Shown piece by piece: positions 12,852 to 31,088 of a stretch of DNA of 54,743 nt; position 1 is the first letter of the stretch, and each line of letters opens with the position of its first letter. The notes beneath the pieces are model-generated. The model was not told where the DNA came from. It saw nothing but the letters and a program-made list of their open reading frames with translations, and did no database searches. Source of the stretch: a virus (Duplodnaviria > Caudoviricetes). The position numbers were made by a program, and so were the translations under genes. Location of the stretch: positions 1 to 54,743 of the IMG/VR virus record IMGVR_UViG_3300022562_001216; one strand, given 5' to 3'.

Positions 12852-13322
12852 ATGGCCTTGACTGCGCGAGAAGTAAATAAAATATGTTTGAGTGGTGTTT
12901 CCATTGAATTGGCTGATCGTTGGCAGGGTGAGTTGGACGTGGATTTTTATGAAGAAGTGCTAAAGATGCCGATGGACTTCAATTATTGCTGGCAAAGCGT
13001 AGGCTCTGACGCCGTGGTGTTGGCAATGATGGCGTATACCCATGGATGCACGGTGGACGATATCATTGGTTCCGTTGATATGCGTGATGAGTATGGCGAT
13101 CCTGTAGCGTGGGCGTTAAGCGAAACGATGCAAATCGGCGTGACGTTAGCGGAGCGAATGATTTACCGGTTTTTAGAGTCTCGCGGTATACCTGTTGAGG
13201 AGTTTTTGAGGTTCAAGTTCCGCTTTTTGGGTTGTGAAACTATGGAATCTGAAGAAATTGAAGAATTTGAACCTAATCAATCAGCTCCACCGTCTGAACC
13301 TCATAGTCTTCAAGCGGGTTAA
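12852..13322 (+). CDS. Hypothetical protein
   Basis: GGAGG SD, 156 aa, acidic. Confidence 0.65.
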   Translation: MALTAREVNKICLSGVSIELADRWQGELDVDFYEEVLKMPMDFNYCWQSVGSDAVVLAMMAYTHGCTVDDIIGSVDMRDEYGDPVAWALSETMQIGVTLAERMIYRFLESRGIPVEEFLRFKFRFLGCETMESEEIEEFEPNQSAPPSEPHSLQAG

Positions 13323-17381: not shown

Positions 17382-17912
17382 ATGGATGGTTTCATTCAAA
17401 AGGCTTTTGAACGGGTTGGTGAACGTTTGACATCATCGCCCTACAAAATTGACGAGTTAGAAATATCGGAAACGCTGCCAGACATTTTTATGGCAACAGT
17501 CTGTTGTCAGGATCGACCGGTGATAGTGTGTGGGCCAGCAGAATTGAAGCAGTGCGGTGATATGGCCGCGGCGCTTGTCTTTGACAGAACCGTGTTGGAA
17601 ATAATGCAAGTGCTTGTGGCTTATGAAAAGCATGGTCAGGCAGCAGGTATACCGCGATCAGAAGAGGATCTTCTGGAGCTGCGAAATAAGTCAGAAATTA
17701 GATTCAACGATTTAAGTTGGCATTGGGCTAAGGCAGATCAGGTGATCACGGACCCTTGTGCATCCGTGTCCGTTGGGCCGTTGCGGGACGATTTAACGAA
17801 TTTGTTGGTGCTGTGTCCCCATGACTTCGGCACGAAAGTGGCGACCGTGTTATGTGTTTCGCCCACGGTGGATAGGATTTTCAGAACGGTCGTAAGAAAT
17901 GGGAGAAACTAA
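17382..17912 (+). CDS. Hypothetical protein
   Basis: 176-aa ORF, TAATG-coupled to the next gene; apparent paralog of 19264-19788. Confidence 0.6.
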   Translation: MDGFIQKAFERVGERLTSSPYKIDELEISETLPDIFMATVCCQDRPVIVCGPAELKQCGDMAAALVFDRTVLEIMQVLVAYEKHGQAAGIPRSEEDLLELRNKSEIRFNDLSWHWAKADQVITDPCASVSVGPLRDDLTNLLVLCPHDFGTKVATVLCVSPTVDRIFRTVVRNGRN

Positions 17913-18172
17913 TGGAAATCGATGATCCCTTTAAAATCTGGACCATTTACCACAACCCATTGGATTTTCCGGGTAAGTACGTGGGGCGCCTGTTCAATGT
18001 GCATAGTCCAGAGACCTTTGGCCCACACAGCATGGTGGTGCCGACTCAGCACCTGTTTGTCAGTGGCCATATTGAGCCGGTGCGGGATTGGATCAAGGGG
18101 CAGGGAGCCACCATCTACATTTGCAAGGATGTTGAGGATGATCCCAATGTCGTGGAGTCTTGGATACGATGA
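17912..18172 (+). CDS. Conserved-type small phage protein
   Basis: WTIYHNPLDFPGKYVGRLF...DDPNVVESWI; GGGAG SD. Confidence 0.7.
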   Translation: MEIDDPFKIWTIYHNPLDFPGKYVGRLFNVHSPETFGPHSMVVPTQHLFVSGHIEPVRDWIKGQGATIYICKDVEDDPNVVESWIR

Positions 18173-21742: not shown

Positions 21743-22216
21743 ATGAGTTCGATTAAAGACGAATTTGGTCTCAAGCCCAAGCACCATGCGTTTGTGCTGG
21801 AATACGTGCAGAACGGCTTGGATGAGATGTTGGCCTACAAGAAAGTGTATGGCTGCAATGAGCGCACCGCTCGCAATGGCGGGGCTAGGCTGTTGGCCAG
21901 CCGTGCGGTTAAGCGCTATCTGAAGAAATATTTTGAAGAGCGTGAGGCCGAGTCGGCGGTGACGGTATCCTGGATCGAAGCCAAGCTCAAGGAAATGGTA
22001 GAGCGCTGTATGCAGGCCGAGCCGGTGATGGTGTTCAATCCAGAGACTAAGGAAATGGTCGAGTCTGGTATTTGGCGCTTTGATTCCGGGGGCGCCAACA
22101 AAGCCCTGGAATTGCTCGGCAAATACCACCGCATGTTTGTCGAAAGGCAGCAAGTGCAACACAGCGGGCGGGTCAGTTACACCCAAATATTCGATCATTC
22201 ATCAGAGGCGGATTGA
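21743..22216 (+). CDS. terS: Terminase small subunit
   Basis: LKPKHHAFVLEY, ARNGGARLL, GANKALELLGKYHRMF; directly before terL. Confidence 0.9.
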   Translation: MSSIKDEFGLKPKHHAFVLEYVQNGLDEMLAYKKVYGCNERTARNGGARLLASRAVKRYLKKYFEEREAESAVTVSWIEAKLKEMVERCMQAEPVMVFNPETKEMVESGIWRFDSGGANKALELLGKYHRMFVERQQVQHSGRVSYTQIFDHSSEAD

Positions 22217-22218
22217 TC

Positions 22219-23691
22219 ATGGGGGCGATGATCCAAGAGCCCGAACTGATTGATTACGTCTATCGCGCCACGCCCACGGGCACCCGCTTTCACCTAGACC
22301 TTAGCTTTTTTCGGGGCATCATGGGGCCAATTGGTTCCGGCAAGTCCGTTTGTTGTGTCGAAGAGTTAAAACGCAATGCTTTGTGGGTGCAAAAGCCCGG
22401 TCCCGATGGCGTGCGTCGTACCCGCTGGGCCATTGTGCGCAACACCTACCCGGAACTGAAAGCCACCACCATCAAGACGTTTTTGCAGTGGTGGGATGAT
22501 CAGCACGTCAACATCGTCTATGGGGCGCCTATTACCGCCACGGTCGAGGTGGAGCTGGAGGATGACACCCGCGTCCACGCTGAGTTTTTGTTCCTGGCCC
22601 TGGATAAACCCAAGGACGTTAAAAAGCTTTTGAGTTTGGAGCTAACGGGCATCTGGTTCAATGAAGCCCGCGAGATACCGAAGACGGTGATTGATGCGGG
22701 CATGGGTCGGGTGGGCCGTTACCCCTCGCTCAAAGACGGTGTGGGGCCAACCAGAGCCTTCGGTATCGCAGACACGAACCCACCGGATGACGACCACTGG
22801 TGGTACAAACTGGCGGAAGAGGACACGCCGGACAACTGGGCTTTTTTCCGGCAGCCGGCGGCGCTGCTCAAAGACGACAACGGCGCCTATCACCCAAATC
22901 CGAAAGCGGAAAACATCGTCAACCTGGCCGATGGCTACGATTACTACCTGCGGCAAGTCTCCGGCAAAGATCCGGAGTGGATCAAGGTTTATTTGCTCGG
23001 TGATTACGGCACCGTGCAGGAAGGCAAGCCGGTTTACCCCACCTTTCGCAGTCAAAGCCATGTGGCCAAGCACATTATTCGGCCTGTACCGGGGCTGGGC
23101 TTGTTGCTGGGCTGGGATTTTGGCCTGACACCGGCCTGCATCATCGGCCAGCTCACCAAGCGCGGCCAATTACGCTTATTGGACGAGTTGTTGGGCGAGG
23201 ATATTGGCATCACCCGCTTTGCGCGGGACGTGGTGAAGCCACACCTGGCGAAAGAATACGCCGGTTTTATCGTCACCAGCTCCACCGCTGACCCTGCCGG
23301 GGGTGCCCGTGCGGAGACGGACGAGCAGACCGCCATCGGCATTTTGAACAGCACCAAGGTCAACATGGGGTTTCGTACCCGGCCAGCCAGCACCAACAAC
23401 CCGCTGCGCCGCATTGAGGCGGTGTCGGGTTATCTCAATCTGATGGTGGACGGCGAGCCCGGTTTGCTGGTGTCGCCCAAGTGCCGGTTGTTGATCAAGG
23501 GCTTTAACGGCGGTTACAAGTACGAGCGAGTCCAGGTCACGGGTGATGAGCGCTACCGGGACACGCCCTGCAAAAACAAGTTTTCCCACCCGCACGATGC
23601 GGTGCAGTACCTGACGCTGGGGGCCACCAGTGGCGGCATCGTTACCGATTACCCAAACACTGGCGCGGATCAGCGCCCCTTTTACGGTTAG
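22219..23691 (+). CDS. terL: Terminase large subunit
   Basis: Walker A GPIGSGKS, IWFNEARE, DTNPPDDDHWWY; nuclease motifs GWDFG and HPHDAVQY. Confidence 0.95.
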   Translation: MGAMIQEPELIDYVYRATPTGTRFHLDLSFFRGIMGPIGSGKSVCCVEELKRNALWVQKPGPDGVRRTRWAIVRNTYPELKATTIKTFLQWWDDQHVNIVYGAPITATVEVELEDDTRVHAEFLFLALDKPKDVKKLLSLELTGIWFNEAREIPKTVIDAGMGRVGRYPSLKDGVGPTRAFGIADTNPPDDDHWWYKLAEEDTPDNWAFFRQPAALLKDDNGAYHPNPKAENIVNLADGYDYYLRQVSGKDPEWIKVYLLGDYGTVQEGKPVYPTFRSQSHVAKHIIRPVPGLGLLLGWDFGLTPACIIGQLTKRGQLRLLDELLGEDIGITRFARDVVKPHLAKEYAGFIVTSSTADPAGGARAETDEQTAIGILNSTKVNMGFRTRPASTNNPLRRIEAVSGYLNLMVDGEPGLLVSPKCRLLIKGFNGGYKYERVQVTGDERYRDTPCKNKFSHPHDAVQYLTLGATSGGIVTDYPNTGADQRPFYG

Positions 23692-23700
23692 AGGTTGGCT

Positions 23701-25725
23701 ATGTACCAGATCACCCCGGAGTTCAAGGAAGGCTACGAAAATGAGGAAGGTCAAGGCCGTCAGACTGAAGCCATGCAGCAAGCGTTGTATGTGACGGGTC
23801 AGCGCATCCGGGCCATGTTTGACGATGCCAAGCGCGACCGGCGGGCCACAGAACAGCGGTGGCTGGAGGATCTGCGGCAATTCAAAGGCCTGTATTCGCC
23901 GGAAATGCGCAAGCTGATCCCGAAAAACCGCTCTAAAGCCTTTGTGCGCATCACCCGGCGCAAAGTGAAGATCTTTGATGCGAGGATGAAAGAGCTTTTG
24001 TTCCCCTCCAATGCAGAGCGCAACTGGGACATTGAGCCGACCCCCAAGCAAACCGAACAAATCTTGCAGACGCCGTTGGGGATGGCGCGGATGCAGGCGT
24101 TGCAGGAGCAAACACAGGGGCAGATCACGCCGCAAATGCTGGAAGAGTTGCAGGATGAGGTGGCCAAAGAAGCCTGCGAGGGGATGCGCACAGAGATTGA
24201 TGACCAGCTTTCAGAGGGCAATTACCGGCAAATCTGCTCAACGGTGATTCATTCGGGTAACTTGTTTGGGACCGGGGTGCTCAAATCCCCCATGGTGAAA
24301 AACAAGGTTGAGCGCACCTGGCAACTGGACCCGCAATCGCAACAGTGGCGGTTAGTGCGCACAGAGCGGCGAGTGCCGTTTTTTGAGGCGGTGGAGTTGT
24401 GGTGCTATTTCCCGGATATGCAAGCGGTCAACATTGAAGACTGCCAGTACCATTTTCAATTGCGGGTGTTGAATCCGCAGCAACTCAAAGACTTGGCGCG
24501 GATACCGGGCTTTAACAAGCAGGTGTTGATGGACTATGCGCGGCAAATGCCGGACGGTGACGCGCAACTGATGGAGCACAGAACCGAGCTGGATGCGTTG
24601 AATTCCGATCAGGACACCCGCAGAAAGCAGCCATTGCGCTTGTATGACGTGATTGAAGGCTGGGTGATGATGACGGAAGAGGACTACATCCAGATGGGTT
24701 TTGAGCCCGAAAACGTGCCAGAGGGCGTCACCTGGGCCAATGTGTGGATGCTGGGGCCATACGTGATCAAGGCAGAAGCCGAACCGCTGGAGGGCATCGA
24801 TCACCCGTTTAACCTGTATTACTTCGACAAAGACGAAACCTCCATATTCGGTGAAGGCCTGGCGGCGATCATGCGTGACGAGCAGCGCCAGCTCAACAGT
24901 ATCCGGCGGGCGGCGTTGGACAATGCCGCCAGCTCTGTGGGCAATGTCTACGATGTGAACGTGGATCTGTTGCTGCCGACAGAGAACAGCAAAGACATTT
25001 ATCCGGGTCGGGTGTTCCTGCGCGGGGGCAATGCCCATGATCCTGCCGTGCGCATTGTCAGCACGCCCAACCACGTCAATCAATACCTGGCCTTGGCCAG
25101 CTATGTGGAAGAGGGTATTCACGAAAACACGGTCCCCTCTTACATGCACGGGGGCAGTGACAACGGTTCCGGTTCCACCGCGACGGGCTTGTCCATGCTG
25201 ATGGGTGCGGCCAACCTGGACATCAAGGATCAGGTACGGTTTTTTGATGACGGCATTACCCTGCCCGCACTCAAGGGTATTTATCACTGGAATATGATTT
25301 TTAGCGAAAAAGAGGAAATCAAGGGCGATTACAACGTCAAGCCTCGCGGTTCCTCTTCCCTGGTGGCCAAAGAAATCCGGGTGGCGCAACTGGATCAGGC
25401 CATGGGTATGTTCAGTAATGAGCTGTTTGCGCCGTTTATTGATTACCGAAAACTGGCCGAGCAGGCGTTGATTGCCCGCGATCTGGGCGACACGGGCATT
25501 GTGATGTCGGAGGAAGATTATCAGGCCAACATGGCCGACAAGGCCAAAATACAGGCGCTGGAGCAACAATTGGCGCAAAAGGATGCCATGATGCAGTTGA
25601 TGCGTTCGGTGGATGCCGATGGGTATAAGGCGCTGGAGGTACGATTGAAAGAAATGATCGAAGAAAAGAGCGGGCGCATGGCCAAGCAAGCGGTTGATCA
25701 GGAGGTGGAGAATGGACAGCTCTAA
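23701..25725 (+). CDS. Portal protein (Bcep22-type podovirus)
   Basis: WLEDLRQFKG, RSKAFVRITRRKV, LFGTGVLKSP, STATGLSMLMGAA; follows terL. Confidence 0.9.
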   Translation: MYQITPEFKEGYENEEGQGRQTEAMQQALYVTGQRIRAMFDDAKRDRRATEQRWLEDLRQFKGLYSPEMRKLIPKNRSKAFVRITRRKVKIFDARMKELLFPSNAERNWDIEPTPKQTEQILQTPLGMARMQALQEQTQGQITPQMLEELQDEVAKEACEGMRTEIDDQLSEGNYRQICSTVIHSGNLFGTGVLKSPMVKNKVERTWQLDPQSQQWRLVRTERRVPFFEAVELWCYFPDMQAVNIEDCQYHFQLRVLNPQQLKDLARIPGFNKQVLMDYARQMPDGDAQLMEHRTELDALNSDQDTRRKQPLRLYDVIEGWVMMTEEDYIQMGFEPENVPEGVTWANVWMLGPYVIKAEAEPLEGIDHPFNLYYFDKDETSIFGEGLAAIMRDEQRQLNSIRRAALDNAASSVGNVYDVNVDLLLPTENSKDIYPGRVFLRGGNAHDPAVRIVSTPNHVNQYLALASYVEEGIHENTVPSYMHGGSDNGSGSTATGLSMLMGAANLDIKDQVRFFDDGITLPALKGIYHWNMIFSEKEEIKGDYNVKPRGSSSLVAKEIRVAQLDQAMGMFSNELFAPFIDYRKLAEQALIARDLGDTGIVMSEEDYQANMADKAKIQALEQQLAQKDAMMQLMRSVDADGYKALEVRLKEMIEEKSGRMAKQAVDQEVENGQL

Positions 25726-25978
25726 CCGGGCAATCGATCCTGAGTTGCTGGCGCGGATTGTGGAGCGGGTGGCGGCGCAGGACTACGCCACCATGGATAT
25801 GCTGCGGGCGCTGGAGCAACAGGTGGCGTTTTTGAAAGATATGATGGTCAATCACGATGATGCCGCGGCCTTGCGCTATCGCTCCCAAGCCATCGGCCTG
25901 TTGGAGTTCATTAAAACCGTGCAGGTGGCGCCAGTGCTGGAGGACGATGATCGACTGGTCAATTCCTACCTGGCATAA
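25712..25978 (+). CDS. Small post-portal protein
   Basis: GGAGGTGGAG SD; overlaps the portal stop. Confidence 0.7.
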   Translation: MDSSNRAIDPELLARIVERVAAQDYATMDMLRALEQQVAFLKDMMVNHDDAAALRYRSQAIGLLEFIKTVQVAPVLEDDDRLVNSYLA

Positions 25979-26004
25979 AAAAACCCCGCTTGCGCGGGGC
26001 TTTT
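25977..26004. terminator. Bidirectional intrinsic terminator
   Basis: A7-CCCCGC-TTGC-GCGGGG-CTTTT. Confidence 0.85.
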
Positions 26005-26226
26005 CGTTTACCTAACCCCAGTAACTGGGGAAACCTTAACGATGACCTAATTACTTTCCTAAGCTTTCAGTCATTTTTTGAACCATCCCCAAGAATTGGG
26101 GAACACTTCTGGCCGGAAGTTGCACCGCTCGAACCGCCTAATGGCGGGTAACTCATAACCCCTCATGGGGATTCGTAACTTTGTTTTCTAAGCCGTCTAT
26201 TCGACGGGTAACAGTTGAACGGTGCC
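25977..26226 (-). ncRNA. Candidate structured ncRNA (~250 nt) with repeated NUUAN motifs
   Basis: Sigma70-like TTGACT-17-CATCAT at 26260-26232; at least six hairpins plus a long-range stem; ends in a U7 terminator; no ORF of 60 aa or more. Confidence 0.6.
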
Positions 26227-26266
26227 GGAGTATGATGCAAAAAACCGCATTGTGAGTCAAGCGTGT

Positions 26267-26512
26267 TCATTCCGTCATTTCAAACATGGCTTTGGTCGCT
26301 TTGCGGGTAAATTGTTTGTCTGTGTAGATGATCGAACACATGCCCCGGATCAAGCGCGAGCGGGTAATGCGTTTTTCCGGGTGCTTCTGGCGCAGTTCAT
26401 TGATGACCAAATCCAATTGATCTTCTTGAAAAGTCGTCAGTCGGATGGTGGTGGGATTGACCGTTTCGCTGCGGTTCTCGTTCGACAGTGTAATGGATCT
26501 TGGTTTACGCAT
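26267..26512 (-). CDS. Small RHH-like centromere-binding partner of ParA (type Ib, ParG-like)
   Basis: Overlaps the parA stop; TTIRLT strand, helix, then ITRSRLIRGM helix. Confidence 0.7.
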   Translation of the reverse strand: MRKPRSITLSNENRSETVNPTTIRLTTFQEDQLDLVINELRQKHPEKRITRSRLIRGMCSIIYTDKQFTRKATKAMFEMTE

Positions 26513-27317
26513 GGTTGACTCCCAATAATTCTTGTGTGAGTGCCCAATAATCGGTTTTGGCTTTGCTTTTGGTGTGCCGAATCACCGGGCGGCGTTCTTT
26601 GCTGGCCTTGCGATACAGCTCACTGGTGCGAATTTCGGTACTGGCCACGGGGTAGTCGTAGCTTTTGATGAGGGCGTCAACAGCATGGTACATGGTTTTG
26701 TGAGCACGGTTGACTTTGGTTTTGACCAGCATGAACGGCACCTCTTCGCCGCGCCGCACCTCCCACACCACTTGCAAAAAGTCCTCGATGCCTTTAACGG
26801 CTCGTACGCACATATCAATTGGAATGATCACTTGATCAGCGACGTAGAGCGCGGTTTCTACGGTCAGATCGATGGCTGGGGGCAAGTCGATCAAGATGAA
26901 CTCAAAGCCCGGTTTTAGTCCCTTGAGGGCATCGGCCAGGATTAAATCCCGGTGCCGAAAGCGCATGGCATTGCGGGCCATGGATGACAGCGCCAGATCC
27001 GCGGGCATGATGGACAGGTTCTCAATCGGTTGGTCGCCGTCCAGGGCCGAGTAAATCAGGCTGTTAATGTCGGTTTTGGGATTCTCAAACAGATCCGTTG
27101 TAGTGCGTTCTTGATTGAAATCCTGAATCTCCCCCTGTTCGTTGACGGCCAAGCCACCGCGGCCTAAGTCGTTGGAAAGATTGCATTGGTGGTCAAACTC
27201 AATCATCAAAGTGTTGTGACCCATTTGCGCCAAACAGCAGCCGATGCTCAGGCATGTGGTGGTCTTGCCGACGCCTCCTTTGCAATTTGCGAATACTAAA
27301 GTGTAGGGCTTAGGCAT
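26505..27317 (-). CDS. parA: ParA partition ATPase
   Basis: KGGVGKTT, EFDHQCNL, ILIDLPP; likely start MPKPY, so no N-terminal HTH (type Ib). Confidence 0.93.
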   Translation of the reverse strand: MPKPYTLVFANCKGGVGKTTTCLSIGCCLAQMGHNTLMIEFDHQCNLSNDLGRGGLAVNEQGEIQDFNQERTTTDLFENPKTDINSLIYSALDGDQPIENLSIMPADLALSSMARNAMRFRHRDLILADALKGLKPGFEFILIDLPPAIDLTVETALYVADQVIIPIDMCVRAVKGIEDFLQVVWEVRRGEEVPFMLVKTKVNRAHKTMYHAVDALIKSYDYPVASTEIRTSELYRKASKERRPVIRHTKSKAKTDYWALTQELLGVNHA

Positions 27318-27362
27318 ACAAACGTAGTCCCTATGTATGTGAATGTGACTACAAATGTATAT
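27314..27362. promoter_or_regulatory. Hexamer array over the parA start/promoter (parS/operator candidate)
   Basis: GCATAC 27314, GTAGTC 27324, GTATGT 27335, GACTAC 27347, GTATAT 27357. Confidence 0.6.
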
Positions 27363-27363
27363 C

Positions 27364-27399
27364 AAAAAAAGAAGGGAAGCGAGCCCCATTGCGGGGCTC
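27364..27399 (-). terminator. Hairpin/terminator after mazF
   Basis: GAGCCCC-GCAAT-GGGGCTC followed by a pyrimidine/U tract on the minus strand. Confidence 0.55.
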
Positions 27400-27404
27400 A
27401 CGGT

Positions 27405-27734
27405 TTACAGGCAGAATAGGTCGAGCAGGACACCGCTAATCTGCGGGTGGTGTTTTGCATCTAGCATTCCGAACGGACGGAGCAGTCTGGTTTGGTCGAG
27501 GGTGCGCAGTTGATCAAGGGCCACTTCACCGACTTGGCCTTTGTGATCTACCACCACTCGGCTAGACCAGTTTCGTAGTGTGCGAGTCATCGGGGCAACG
27601 ATAACTGTACGCACGCGGCGGTTGAGCACGTCTGGTGATAGCACTACCACCGGACGCTGCCCGGCCACTTCCGCCCCCTGGGTGGGGCTCAATTGCACCC
27701 ACCACACTGAAAAACGATGTATTACCACGTCCAT
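27405..27734 (-). CDS. mazF: PemK/MazF endoribonuclease toxin
   Basis: VWWVQLSPTQGAEVAGQRPVVVLS, IVAPMT, LDQLRTLDQTRL. Confidence 0.93.
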   Translation of the reverse strand: MDVVIHRFSVWWVQLSPTQGAEVAGQRPVVVLSPDVLNRRVRTVIVAPMTRTLRNWSSRVVVDHKGQVGEVALDQLRTLDQTRLLRPFGMLDAKHHPQISGVLLDLFCL

Positions 27735-27958
27735 TCCTCCTCATCCCACTGAGTGGGTTCGTCGTCTAACAGCATTTCATGGTCATCCAAGCCACCGGCA
27801 AACGCTTCGGGTTTGTCCCAGTCGTGCCGGGGGTGTCTGACCACGCGCTTGATTTCCACTTCAATCTCATCACCGCTGTGGGCGTCAAGTTCGGCCAAGA
27901 TTGCAGCGGGGTAGACATTGCCTACGCTGTTGCCGATTTTGCGCAGTTTTACGATCAT
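27722..27958 (-). CDS. mazE: AbrB/MazE antitoxin
   Basis: KLRKIGNSVG...; acidic C-terminus WDEEEWTW; overlaps the toxin start. Confidence 0.9.
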   Translation of the reverse strand: MIVKLRKIGNSVGNVYPAAILAELDAHSGDEIEVEIKRVVRHPRHDWDKPEAFAGGLDDHEMLLDDEPTQWDEEEWTW

Positions 27959-28088
27959 CGTTGTTCTCCTATCAGGTTTTGAATTAATGGGCTGTTGTCA
28001 GCGGCGATATACACCACGGGCAACATAAAAATAACCAATACAATCCAAAGATATTTAGCCATATTTCCCCTTTTTTGTTGCGTTGAAT

Positions 28089-28107
28089 GTAATAACAATG
28101 TTATTAC
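28089..28107. promoter_or_regulatory. TA operator palindrome
   Basis: GTAATAACA-A-TGTTATTAC perfect IR upstream of mazE. Confidence 0.65.
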
Positions 28108-28211
28108 TTTAATGCTTGTCAGTCAATCGATAGTTTGACATACTGATCGCATACAAACGTATTCTGTTTGTATTCGGAAATGAGTCTATCAGTCAGGTAT
28201 TAGGGGGTTAT

Positions 28212-28475
28212 ATGCAAATCGGTGAAATACACATTCTCACAGTAAAACAGCACTACAAGAACGTGCGCTTTGATGTTGATTTTAAAGCGCGTGAGCATTC
28301 AAACAGCATGACGCTGGAAGATCTGGTGGTTAAGCTGCGAGAGTACGACCGGCAGCGCGAGGCGATCAATGTCTGGTCAGCGGGTGAATTGATCGCGGTG
28401 AAAGCAAGCTGGATAGACAGTGAGGCTGTCAATGTCTGGTCAGAGGGTGAATTGATTGCCACAACGGAGTATTAG
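28212..28475 (+). CDS. Hypothetical protein with internal duplication
   Basis: AGGGGG SD; EA(I/V)NVWS(A/E)GELIA occurs twice. Confidence 0.55.
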   Translation: MQIGEIHILTVKQHYKNVRFDVDFKAREHSNSMTLEDLVVKLREYDRQREAINVWSAGELIAVKASWIDSEAVNVWSEGELIATTEY

Positions 28476-28667
28476 ATGATTGACCAAGACGACAACGTTT
28501 ACGCTTACGATATGACGCTGGAGCAAATCATGGAATGCCTGGACCGGGGTGATCTGGTCAACCTGGCCAACAAGTCGCAGGCGCTGGGCTTGCTCCACTA
28601 CATGCTCGACAACGACATTGACCCGATGGAGTACCGAGAGGAGGGATTGGCCATTTGGAAGGCTTAA
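28476..28667 (+). CDS. Hypothetical protein
   Basis: GGAG SD; abuts the upstream stop. Confidence 0.55.
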   Translation: MIDQDDNVYAYDMTLEQIMECLDRGDLVNLANKSQALGLLHYMLDNDIDPMEYREEGLAIWKA

Positions 28668-28915
28668 ACTACATCGCAGCGGCCAGCCTAGCCTTGAATA
28701 TCGGGCTAGGGCTGGCCTATCACTTCACGGTCAAGCTGTGGCAAATCCGGGCACGGGTCAACGAGGACGCCGCCAACGTGATCATGGCGGCGACTAAAAA
28801 GCACTGCACACCGGAACAGGTGGTGCTGATTCTTCAAGACGCCGGTAATGAGCTGGAAATACTCAAGGCCATCCGGGTGGCCGAATTCGATCATAAAAAA
28901 CGCGCTCAGGAGTAA
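28655..28915 (+). CDS. Hypothetical membrane protein
   Basis: N-terminal hydrophobic helix; TTG start. Confidence 0.5.
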   Translation: MEGLNYIAAASLALNIGLGLAYHFTVKLWQIRARVNEDAANVIMAATKKHCTPEQVVLILQDAGNELEILKAIRVAEFDHKKRAQE

Positions 28916-28951
28916 TCCCCTGGCGCGTTCCTGCCGATCCTGTGCATAGTT

Positions 28952-29110
28952 TTAATTCCTTAGTTGAACGACGTTTGCAGTTTCCTCATTTTGACGTGTT
29001 GAACGACGCTGTTCACGGCTTGCGGTCCAGATTGTGATCTGGAAGATGACAAGATGCAAAACAGTGTGGACACCTGCATACGTCAGAACATAGTCGATGA
29101 TGGAGTACAT
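28952..29110 (-). CDS. Small (52 aa) putative membrane peptide
   Basis: GAGGAGGGG SD; one hydrophobic segment; terminator-like hairpin at 28895-28929. Confidence 0.45.
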   Translation of the reverse strand: MYSIIDYVLTYAGVHTVLHLVIFQITIWTASREQRRSTRQNEETANVVQLRN

Positions 29111-29223
29111 ACTACCCCTCCTCAGTTCTGGGCTGTCAGGTTTGCTTTTTTTTGTGTTAGGGGTTGAGTCCCCTATGTAAAGTAGATCACAAAATAACCA
29201 ATCATGATATGAAAAATTGCCAT

Positions 29224-29400
29224 TATCACATAACTTTACAAATGTATGTGACTTGTTACGCATTCGGCGCAATCTATTGATTTCAAAACTTGCGGCTTAG
29301 CATTTAATTGTACTTTGTTTTTAAAACGGGTTTTGATATCGTTTTCCCTTCACTAACGTCCTTAGTCGCTGCCATTGCAAAAACACCCGTTTTTGAGACA
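29224..29400. promoter_or_regulatory. res-like site (three IR subsites) for the serine resolvase
   Basis: TCACATA..TATGTGA; ATTTCAAAAC..GTTTTGATAT; CAAAAAC-ACCC-GTTTTTG(AGACA), upstream of the resolvase operon. Confidence 0.55.
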
Positions 29401-29443
29401 GATAGATAGCGTGTTTAGTCAGGGGCACAACTAAGGACTGTGT

Positions 29444-29926
29444 ATGGCAATCACGCTTTACAAAGCACGGGGGCGATTCGTTGGCTATCGCGTTGTACGC
29501 AAAGCACACAACAAAATGCACCAGCTCTATTTCACTCTGTCCACCTACGGCACCAAGGCACAGGCACACAAGGCGGCCAAGCAAGCGGATAAGTTGTTGG
29601 CCAAGGCCTACCCGTACAAAAAACTGGTGCGGGACAACGGGCGCTTGTTCGGTTTGAGTCTGTACGAGCGCTGGCACGATGACACCGGCTTTTTAGAGCA
29701 GGGCATGAGATTGACGATCACCCAAGACTACGATCTGAAGTTTAACAAAACGTGGACTTTTGGGGCTCATGACTGGGAAAGCGCCTATGCAGAAGCGGTG
29801 GAGCATATCATGCACTACCGCAAACTGAAGCCCTGCGCCAAATTAACCAAGCTATTTGCAGAGGCTAAGGCCTTTTATAATCCTGGCCGCAAGGCCAATT
29901 TTAGACAGAGACGGAGACGCACATGA
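29444..29926 (+). CDS. Protein with two AP2-like DNA-binding domains
   Basis: GYRVVR..QLYFTLSTYGTKAQAHKAAK and KTWTFGAHDWESAYAEAVE. Confidence 0.6.
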   Translation: MAITLYKARGRFVGYRVVRKAHNKMHQLYFTLSTYGTKAQAHKAAKQADKLLAKAYPYKKLVRDNGRLFGLSLYERWHDDTGFLEQGMRLTITQDYDLKFNKTWTFGAHDWESAYAEAVEHIMHYRKLKPCAKLTKLFAEAKAFYNPGRKANFRQRRRRT

Positions 29927-30531
29927 AGATTGGCTATGCACGGGTATCCACCGCAGATCAGAACCTGGATCTGCAATTGGATGCACTGACGGGCGCGGGG
30001 GTGCCTGCAAATTACATCTACAGCGACCACGCCAGCGGTGCCTCGACGGCAAGGCCGGGGCTGGAGCAGTGTTTGCGGGCTCTGCGCGAAGGCGATTGTT
30101 TGGTGGTGTGGAAGCTGGACCGGCTCGGTCGCAGTTTAAAAGACCTGGTGGGGCTGGTGGAAACCTTGCGCGAGCGGGGGGTGGGCTTTCAAGTGCTGAC
30201 CGGGGCGGGCATGATCGACACCACCACGCCTGCGGGCCGCATGATGTACGGCTTCTTTGCTGTGATGGCCGAGTATGAGCGGGAGCTGATCCGCGAGCGT
30301 ACCCTAGCGGGCCTCAAAGCGGCTCGTGCCCGTGGCAGAAAAGGCGGTAGGCCGAGAGCACTCACTAAGCACCAGGTGTCTTACCTGCGCCATGCCATGG
30401 GTGATCCGGCCACCGATGTGGCCATGCTGCTGAAAGAAATGAATCTGTCGCGGGCCAGCCTGTACCGCTACGTCAGCCCTTCCGGGGAGCTGCGGGAAAT
30501 GGGCAAGCGCGTAATGGGGGTGGACTCATGA
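29923..30531 (+). CDS. Serine recombinase (resolvase/invertase family)
   Basis: IGYARVST, LVVWKLDRLGRS, ERELIRERTLAGL, GRKGGRP, C-terminal HTH. Confidence 0.95.
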   Translation: MKIGYARVSTADQNLDLQLDALTGAGVPANYIYSDHASGASTARPGLEQCLRALREGDCLVVWKLDRLGRSLKDLVGLVETLRERGVGFQVLTGAGMIDTTTPAGRMMYGFFAVMAEYERELIRERTLAGLKAARARGRKGGRPRALTKHQVSYLRHAMGDPATDVAMLLKEMNLSRASLYRYVSPSGELREMGKRVMGVDS

Positions 30532-31088
30532 TCTTGTACAGTGATCCGGTGATCATTCGCGGTGATCGAAGCGCCAACTATCAAGAAAAGTGCGAAGAAA
30601 TCATTGATTTCTATAACATGGCGGGCAATTACCCGGAAGAACTCAACTTACGCAAGCCTGAGAGCACCTGTATTATTGCCGTGCCGGGGGTGCCGGGCGG
30701 GATGCTGTTGGACCATCACAGCCAAGAGGGCTTCTGGCGCATCATGTTTGCGGCGTTCCCCACTGAATATCAGGGTCGCGGGTTGTTGCGGCGTTCGCTG
30801 CAAATGGCGGAAGACAACGGCATTAACATTGCTGTGGTGGAGCGTGCCATGCTGGGCACACGCAACACGGACCCGATCTGGAAGCATTTCGGTTTCGTCC
30901 ATGAAACCATGGTGGGGTTGTGTCCCTGTTTAGCCAAGGATGAGGTCATGCGCTACTCTAAACACACAGAAGGTCTCGATTTAGATTATGTGCTGGAAGC
31001 GCTGCGTGCGGATGGCCGTCATGAGGCTGCGGAGGCATTGGAAGACAATTTTAAAAGGGCCATCGACGATGCAGAGCGAGATCAGTGA
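30528..31088 (+). CDS. GNAT-like acetyltransferase
   Basis: PTEYQGRGLLRRSLQ (motif A), IWKHFGF. Confidence 0.6.
   Translation: MILYSDPVIIRGDRSANYQEKCEEIIDFYNMAGNYPEELNLRKPESTCIIAVPGVPGGMLLDHHSQEGFWRIMFAAFPTEYQGRGLLRRSLQMAEDNGINIAVVERAMLGTRNTDPIWKHFGFVHETMVGLCPCLAKDEVMRYSKHTEGLDLDYVLEALRADGRHEAAEALEDNFKRAIDDAERDQ

Follow-up and report, generated by a model that had tools for sequence, protein, structure and literature searches.

A candidate phage RNA gene composed of repeat-like units from more than one CRISPR-Cas system, possibly a heterotypic RNA anti-CRISPR

The virus record IMGVR_UViG_3300022562_001216 (IMG/VR; Duplodnaviria, Caudoviricetes) was analysed over its complete length of 54,743 bp, hereafter called the window, and direct terminal repeats are present in it. 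On the plus strand, genes for terminase (22213-23691) and portal (23695-25725) and an open reading frame (ORF) of 94 aa lead to a bidirectional terminator at approximately 25984-25999. A mazE-like gene, mazF/pemK, parA, and an 81-aa orphan gene (26267-26512) converge on the same terminator from the minus strand. The subject of this report is an intergenic element (26231-25977, minus strand) situated between the 81-aa gene and the convergent portal-side genes, which an earlier note had described as a candidate novel multi-hairpin noncoding RNA displaying UUA motifs. Judged by its sequence, we lean towards the view that the element is a phage RNA gene built from the repeats of more than one CRISPR (clusters of regularly interspaced short palindromic repeats)-Cas system, most likely an RNA anti-CRISPR (Racr), i.e. 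a heterotypic Racr-like decoy. Its features, from 5′ to 3′, are as follows.

26232-26260, minus strand: sigma-70-like promoter TTGACT-17-CATCAT, with 9 of 12 consensus positions; it directly follows the stop codon of the 81-aa gene.
26213-26231, minus strand: 5′ leader, in which GCACCGUUC (26225-26217) forms the 5′ arm of a closing stem (minimum free energy, MFE, and centroid structures).
26185-26212, minus strand: unit 1, a 28-nt type I-F-like repeat, GTTACCCGTCGAATAGACGGCTTAGAAA, consisting of 5 nt, a 5-bp stem, a 5-nt loop, and the 8-nt handle CUUAGAAA (Rfam and repeat comparison).
26153-26184, minus strand: 32-nt "spacer" between units 1 and 3, made of ACAAA and the first 27 nt of unit 2 (unit starts 60 nt apart).
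26152-26179, minus strand: unit 2, a 28-nt copy of the repeat of a type I-D-like system, GTTACGAATCCCCATGAGGGGTTATGAG (27/28 to plasmid pTfr153 and 28/28 to an array in the metagenome runs X2 and X3).
26125-26152, minus strand: unit 3, a degenerate I-F-like repeat, GTTACCCGCCATTAGGCGGTTCGAGCGG (19/28 to unit 1; fold).
26105-26120, minus strand: hairpin ACUUC-CGGCCA-GAAGU (MFE fold).
26078-26106, minus strand: unit 4, GTGTTCCCCAATTCTTGGGGATGGTTCAA, a repeat-like hairpin with I-E-like ends (repeat search, fold).
26042-26074, minus strand: hairpin AUGAC...GUCAU with a large A/G-rich loop (MFE fold).
26007-26035, minus strand: unit 5, GGTTTCCCCAGTTACTGGGGTTAGGTAAA (repeat search, fold).
25977-26000, minus strand: intrinsic terminator CCCCGC-GCAA-GCGGGG followed by U7, bidirectional and also ending the portal-side plus-strand genes.

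The 32 nt following unit 1 were first taken as a spacer. Comparison with plasmids revealed at least 40 matching places on the Thiothrix fructosivorans plasmid pTfr153 (30/32 identical, E 3e-5), in a 6.6-kb array with 103 copies of the repeat GTTACGAATCCCCATGCGGGGTTATGAG and spacers of 35-37 nt in 99 of the 102 intervals. Unit 2 differs from this repeat at one loop base (27/28 identical, 47-50 bits), and the two have the same predicted dot-bracket fold. The array directly follows cas6, a 970-aa gene, csc2/cas7d, a 209-aa gene, cas3′ helicase, cas4, cas1, and cas2. In the NCBIfam search of pTfr153, Csc2 scored above the cut-off while Cas6 and the I-D-type Cas3′ fell just below theirs; therefore, the system is named I-D-like. 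When the element (226 nt) was compared with plasmids, 22 records were matched, with many places on pTfr153 only and single places with E of 0.7-9 on the others, while the 15 phage records matched all had E of 3-9. A weak, single-place intergenic match on an IncI2 plasmid was inspected and dropped. Within the pTfr153 array, blocks of 2.4 and 4.5 units (13094-13249 and 17754-18039 of the extracted locus) were 100% identical to each other and represent duplicated spacers.

Contigs of four public runs, all of DNA, were mapped on positions 24500-28500. Contigs at least 99% alike numbered 56 in X2 (labelled hydrothermal vent metagenome) and 54 in X3, and the pieces listed at unit 2 in these two runs lay on 26150-26182 with 0 differences. 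Some of them join unit 2 to itself across 33 or 35 other letters in the manner of repeat-spacer-repeat, which indicates an environmental array with a repeat 28/28 identical to unit 2 and a period of about 64 as in pTfr153. No comparable pile of contigs was observed over any other unit in the four runs. Unit 2 falls within the SRUFinder rule, which asks for 90% or more identity across 90% or more of a bona fide repeat, and unit 1 alone (23/28) falls outside it. The identity of the unit 2 repeat is also the one lead to a host of this uncultivated phage, pointing to a Thiothrix-like gammaproteobacterium.

Rfam was scanned at gathering thresholds over the window, permissively over 25900-26320 (421 nt), and with all 4227 families over the 54.7-kb window. 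At gathering thresholds, no match was found anywhere in the window. In the permissive scan, unit 1 matched CRISPR-DR4 (RF01317) with 30.6 bits over the full model (positions 1-28; E 5.6e-5 in 421 nt), and this match was the best among all 4227 families over the whole window (E 0.0073). The element thus has ties to what is already known, as unit 1 is a near-threshold match to a described CRISPR family and unit 2 is identical to a natural CRISPR repeat.

Scanning 185,579 species genomes for the stem and handle of unit 1 located one place, on a contig of a Selenomonas ruminantium metagenome-assembled genome (DFHU01000007.1; locus L009). The arrays of this locus have a period of 60, as likewise found in G001, and the repeat GTGTTCCGCCGAATAGGCGGCTTAGAAA; an I-F-type Cas2-3 fusion and Csy1 were recognized by Pfam, so the locus is a verified I-F system. 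Unit 1 is identical to this I-F repeat at 23 of 28 positions, and the two have the identical dot-bracket fold, .....(((((.....)))))......... Unit 1 has C6 and G20, the base pair described as essential for Cas6f (PMC10651486).

The place matched in the Selenomonas contig (6995-7071 of L009) is a mini-array that lies approximately 120 nt upstream of csy1 and follows a regular I-F array at a distance of 1.2 kb, with a HipA-like gene between the two arrays. It consists of a CCGTC-stem repeat with the handle CTTAGAAA, about 22 nt, a degenerate CCGCC-stem repeat, and a T-run, and looks like a host crRNA-like (CRISPR RNA-like) regulator of the CreA/CreR type. It resembles the phage element in having the same pair of CCGTC and CCGCC stems as units 1 and 3, its degenerate repeat doubling as the terminator; it differs from the phage element in its location within a cas locus, in its spacer of about 22 nt, and in holding no repeat of a second system.

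The third unit and the spacing of the units connect the two repeat types. Unit 3 shares the first 8 nt of unit 1; its 5-bp stem is preserved by a U-A to C-G change and its loop is shorter by 1 nt, and the diverged 3′ handle serves as the 3′ arm of the closing stem. Retention of the 5′ part and the stem together with loss of the handle fits the last repeat of an array. The 8-mer GTTACCCG, which occurs three times on the minus strand in the whole window, starts units 1 and 3 (at 26212 and 26152) exactly 60 nt apart; the resulting 28+32+28 layout is that of an I-F repeat-spacer-repeat, with the period of 60 known from L009 and G001. Unit 2 begins 5 nt after unit 1 and overlaps unit 3 by 1 nt, base 28 of unit 2 being the first G of unit 3. 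Two facts have to be explained jointly, namely that the repeat of one system is complete and that it lies exactly in the spacer slot of the mini-array of another.

A second reading of this layout is that of a working guide, in which units 1 and 3 form an I-F mini-array with one 32-nt spacer, captured at some time from a replicon that carried an I-D-like array. The host I-F complex would then bind, cleave, or prime against DNA carrying the array of the other system, and would thereby cure the cell of a plasmid such as pTfr153 or silence that array at the leader-repeat junction; a regulatory (Cracr/crlRNA-like) variant is included. Such a guide would account for the exact 28+32+28 geometry, equal to the 60-nt period of I-F arrays, as well as for the intact CUUAGAAA handle of unit 1 and the terminal-repeat-like unit 3. 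The matching natural array is plasmid-borne and the phage itself looks like a plasmid prophage, with ParA, a resolvase, and a toxin-antitoxin pair. Viral mini-arrays that use host Cas proteins against competing elements (PMC11656645) and viral crRNA-like RNAs that redirect Cas complexes (bioRxiv 10.1101/2024.10.29.618823) are known.

However, the PAM (protospacer adjacent motif)-proximal seed ACAAA lies outside the repeat, so that the full target could be one particular repeat junction only, and ACAAA precedes none of the 103 pTfr153 repeats. No other target was found in the window, phages, or plasmids: the 32 nt had no second site in the window with up to 3 mismatches and no phage match, and the sole match was the CRISPR repeat, with no protospacer in phages or plasmids apart from the pTfr153 repeats. 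We estimate that only about 6 of 64 registers would place a complete repeat within a randomly acquired 32-nt protospacer, yet unit 2 is whole owing to the G shared with unit 3. Units 1 and 3 are just 19/28 identical, and the I-F Cracr spacers described in bioRxiv 10.1101/2024.10.29.618823 are shorter than canonical ones while the present one is of full length. The exact spacing favours a captured spacer and the completeness of unit 2 favours tandem mimics, and by a rough estimate the two coincidences about cancel out. We therefore retain the working guide as a serious rival, although we regard it as unlikely.

The two functions could also be nested. A full-format I-F crRNA excised by Cas6f, with the repeat of a co-resident I-D-like system as its guide, would send the I-F machinery against the replicon or the leader-repeat junction of the rival, while the same RNA titrates the Cas6 of that rival. 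If this were true, the phage would turn one CRISPR system on another; we consider such a double role rather improbable. Searches with the spacers themselves offered no connection to the phage. The best match between pTfr153 spacers and the window was 18/19, which is not convincing for about 100 spacers, and two spacers from X2 and X3 gave chance matches only.

Units 4 and 5, which lie within 130 nt after units 1-3, are identical at 20 of 29 positions, start 71 nt apart, and show a compensatory A-U to G-C change in the stem. CRISPR-DR52 was hit on the plus strand with 12 bits (E 8.5) and was treated as a chance match. When metagenomes were scanned for both ends of unit 4, four loci were retrieved, comprising an array with 29-nt repeats (L020), a two-unit mini-array (L019), and two single matches (L018 and L021) without a second copy nearby. 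None of the four matches unit 4 internally, and the agreement at the ends of L019 and L020, fetched with a pattern built from those ends, is partly by construction. L019 (metagenome contig Ga0315291_10008839, 1225-1316) is intergenic and contains two I-E-like hairpin units with AT-rich inner stems, 32 nt apart, the second unit having a 6-bp stem and a 3-nt loop as in units 4 and 5; it is possibly another cas-less mini-array on a mobile element. Viral contigs were scanned for the unit 1 core, the unit 2 core, unit 3, an IUPAC pattern of units 4/5, and the large-loop hairpin, with 0 matches for each.

The structural description given in the earlier note was confirmed. The promoter-like site is present, and in the MFE fold of 26232-25975 (minus strand) a 9-bp closing stem pairs GCACCGUUC (26225-26217) with GAGCGGUGC (26130-26122) and encloses three hairpins, with four more hairpins and the GCAA-loop terminator with U7 downstream of the closed domain. 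The fold energy of the minus strand was -91 kcal/mol, compared with -72.8 ± 5.0 in 200 shuffles (z = -3.67), and no shuffle was as good. The plus strand folded nearly as well (z = -3.28); because the hairpins are symmetric, folding gives no indication of the strand. A promoter-like site and a terminator flank the element on the minus strand only. In 25000-28500, 6 promoter-like sites were found compared with 3.2 ± 1.6 in shuffles, which is weak evidence alone, and the RNA could equally be the 3′ end of a mazEF-parA-orf81 transcript.

The excess of UUA on which the earlier note was centred is likewise real. TTA occurs 11 times on the minus strand of 26231-25977 and 3 times on the plus strand, in the pentamers previously listed; dinucleotide shuffles contained 5.9 ± 1.6, with 3 of 2000 reaching 11, and the window-wide rate predicts 1.9. 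Six of the 11 lie inside units 1-3: each of these units starts with GTTAC, and the others are in the handle of unit 1 (CTTAG), the tail of unit 2 (GTTAT), and the loop of unit 3 (ATTAG). The enrichment is a by-product, since the ends of CRISPR repeats contain UUA (GTTAC..., ...CTTAGAAA, and ...TTATGAG).

The note had gone on to propose that the RNA titrates a UUA-binding protein or is a decoy or substrate for a MazF/PemK-type RNase. A PemK/MazF gene does lie 1.2 kb upstream, but adjacency alone links the RNA with MazF; the UUA copies in units 1-3 belong to sequences set by CRISPR-repeat identity, and no such known RNA family matched. We therefore found no support for a UUA-binding protein or for MazF as the partner, and this model appears extremely improbable. 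The comparison with CsrB/RsmZ did not hold either: RsmY scored 23 bits against a threshold of 57, aligned mostly via the terminator, and the element contains one GGA. The element is like the CsrB/RsmY/RsmZ sponges in being a multi-hairpin RNA with many copies of a protein-binding module, and unlike them in having no GGA loops, its modules being putative Cas6-type substrates. The underlying idea of a structured decoy RNA displaying repeated protein-binding modules still fits, with CRISPR repeats instead of UUA motifs as the modules and Cas6-type nucleases and Cascade subunits as the likely partners.

The neighbouring genes on the minus strand are as follows.

26267-26512, minus strand: 81-aa orphan gene, overlapping the end of parA; ribbon-helix-helix (RHH)-like, with no family and no relatives.
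26505-27401, minus strand: ParA partition ATPase (family search).
27405-27958, minus strand: mazF/pemK toxin gene (27405-27734) and a small upstream partner gene (27722-27958) (family search).

The nearest plasmid homologues of ParA, on gammaproteobacterial plasmids, are 49-52% identical. The 81-aa protein matched only itself among 5.8 billion proteins; the structures nearest to it belong to CopG/RHH clusters (TM 0.51-0.57, a lead only), and the gene probably encodes a partition adaptor. Pfam and PHROGs searches of the small neighbouring ORFs gave no match, so that no acr or aca gene could be named, and no tRNA or tmRNA genes were found in the window. A 202-aa resolvase (29923-30531), the only recombinase found, lies next to the par and toxin-antitoxin module; genes for capsid and adaptor restart at about 33244. 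The region 25980-31000, with the RNA element, the RHH-like 81-aa gene, parA, mazF, the mazE-like gene, several orphan ORFs, and the resolvase, is a plasmid-maintenance island inserted between the portal and the capsid/adaptor genes, splitting the structural module, and the RNA element lies at its edge. With this ParA/resolvase/toxin-antitoxin island and no tyrosine integrase found in the window, the phage looks like one persisting as a plasmid, a phage-plasmid lifestyle.

Several observations were made on the island itself. A 160-aa ORF (29444-29926) directly before the resolvase had an AP2-domain match below threshold (22.6 bits; cut-off 33.3). Upstream of the mazE-like gene, two near-perfect palindromes at 28086-28140 (AATGTAATAACA/TGTTATTACTTT and TGTCAGTCAATCGAT/ATCGATAGTTTGACA) coincide in part with promoter-like sites and probably form the operator of this operon; they may even be the actual partition site. 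A 270-nt piece of parA (27168-27437) was found with 3 differences in contigs of X2 and X3, which come from other studies, and X4 (labelled soil metagenome) contains three pieces, with 1-3 differences each, that cover the mazE-like gene and sequence upstream of it (27760-28484). These short near-identical contigs indicate that the par and toxin-antitoxin module circulates beyond this phage.

The position of the element, directly after the ParA and small-protein pair, raises the alternative of a partition centromere, that is, a region of hairpins and short motifs downstream of parA-orf81 serving as the DNA site of the 81-aa RHH-like protein. The CopG/RHH-like structural neighbours of this protein (a lead only) and the presence in the element of four copies each of GTTAC and TTAGG are in its favour. 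Regular iterons were not found, however, with GTTAC spaced by 33, 27, and 127 nt and units 4/5 as the sole longer direct repeat; the palindromes differ from each other in sequence, and both the 28/28 identity to a CRISPR repeat and the near-threshold I-F repeat 5 nt away would be left unexplained. A centromere is thus very improbable.

Alternatively, the element may be a relic or a recombination site, either debris of a host array left by illegitimate recombination or a homology patch into host arrays, with a functionless RNA. The 28/28 identity to a natural repeat could serve as such a patch, and a single instance of the locus is known. Against this, the resolvase stands as the sole recombinase, a tyrosine integrase was not found, and ParA points to extrachromosomal maintenance. 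Unlike random debris, the repeats of two systems abut without spacers in one orientation, from a promoter-like site to a terminator and with a closing stem, and the stem of unit 3 was kept through compensatory change. We consider this origin quite improbable.

For the favoured reading as an RNA anti-CRISPR, we infer expression, Cas binding, processing, and inhibition to proceed as follows. The RNA would arise either from the weak promoter (26260-26232) or as the 3′ portion of the transcript of the par operon, and would end at the terminator at 25977-26000. Type I-F Cas6f of the host would bind the hairpins of units 1 and 3 and cut each at its 3′ base, which would yield a 60-nt crRNA-like RNA composed of the CUUAGAAA handle, 32 nt, and the unit 3 hairpin. 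This product may load Cas proteins without having a useful target and so compete with real crRNAs. Its 32-nt body is a complete I-D-like repeat hairpin, so that one transcript would also titrate the Cas6 of the second system. The two other hairpins, like units 4 and 5, may mimic repeats of additional systems or act as scaffold. Csy4 (Cas6f) and Cas1 were not found in a six-frame search of the complete phage genome, which covered these two cas families only; any activity must therefore use host proteins. There is precedent for such steps: Cas6f binds and cuts a solitary I-F repeat encoded by a prophage, which nucleates an aberrant Cas6f-Cas7f complex and blocks interference and priming, and a non-targeting crRNA lowers interference too (PMC10651486). 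Marine Thiotrichales can carry many arrays along with I-F genes (PMC5728499).

Several points weigh against this reading. No RNA run containing the stretch turned up, and the promoter match is weak. Unit 1 remained under the CRISPR-DR4 gathering threshold (30.6 compared with 35 bits), Rfam did not recognize unit 3 (scan of 26118-26160), and units 4/5 had no Rfam CRISPR match on the minus strand (26000-26112). No array with the exact stem of unit 1 was present in the 185,579 species genomes, where the single match was the mini-array, and the best natural repeat reached for this unit is just 23/28 identical and comes from Selenomonas, an implausible host. The reading further presumes that I-F and I-D-like systems occur together in one host cell. 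The exact 32-nt spacing is also expected of a working guide. Relatives of the locus were not found: blastn of 25900-26600 against phages and plasmids (E 1e-5), back-translated ORF81 and ParA against viral contigs, and a 34-mer of the 5′ end of the element against metagenome contigs gave 0 matches each, and the portal relatives (7 loci, 26-28% identity) are too distant for intergenic comparison.

The strand is a further point. The transcribed strand of the pTfr153 array was deduced from three signs only, namely the order of the genes, a terminator on the plus strand 207 nt beyond the final repeat, and unequal base usage in the first three positions of the spacers. The array matched nothing in phages and only itself in plasmids, giving no protospacer and no PAM-based orientation. 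Transcription of the array from the opposite strand would make unit 2 antisense to the repeat RNA of the host and would require the mechanism to be reconsidered.

Among known systems, the closest likeness is to the Racr described by Camara-Wilpert et al. (2023; RacrIF1, PMC10651486), which is also an intergenic, phage-encoded copy of a CRISPR repeat with no cas found, a repeat hairpin, and a promoter-like site. The I-F unit with C6-G20 is common to both, Cas6f binding and cutting and crRNA competition being expected here. Unlike in Racr as described there, three to five repeat-like units abut, at least two subtypes (I-F-like and I-D-like) are represented, and two I-F-like units stand in array register with a predicted product carrying a proper 5′ handle, which the inhibitory product of RacrIF1 is described as lacking. 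With neighbouring units this close, the element is not "solitary" in the Racr sense of no repeat-like sequence within 100 bp.

The viral crRNA-like (Cracr) arrays reported by Liu et al. (bioRxiv 10.1101/2024.10.29.618823), which repress cas or toxin promoters, share with the element the order repeat-like/spacer-like/repeat-like, the degenerate repeats, the location outside a cas locus in phages and plasmids, the presence of several units per transcript, and a last unit near the terminator. As reported, those arrays have one subtype each, spacers matching cas or creT promoters, and shortened I-F spacers, whereas the phage element combines I-F-like and I-D-like repeats and its spacer, of full 32 nt, is the repeat of another system. 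Virus-borne mini-CRISPR arrays (PMC11656645) are similar repeat-spacer-repeat structures without cas genes that rely on host Cas proteins; their described repeats are identical to those of the host and their spacers are directed against related viruses, unlike the 19/28 identical repeats and the CRISPR repeat-matching spacer found here.

By sequence, the element appears to belong with the CRISPR-derived counter-defence RNAs, outside both the "solitary" pattern of Racr and the Cracr pattern of one subtype with short, promoter-matching spacers. What appears to be new is the occurrence of repeats of at least two subtypes in one short putative transcript, one of them placed exactly in the spacer slot of the other. 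This arrangement was not met in the literature searched, and supplementary lists may already hold unit 2 or sequences corresponding to the other units, that of PMC10651486 containing 2,103 viral solitary repeat units from IMG/VR3 and that of PMC5728499 containing 18 repeats. Clustered mimics of this kind may be systematically missed, because the published search pipeline, SRUFinder, discards by design candidates with repeat-like neighbours within 100 bp (PMC10651486). If the favoured reading is true, the element would be a compact polyvalent inhibitor for hosts that stack several CRISPR systems, e.g. marine sulfur bacteria (PMC5728499).

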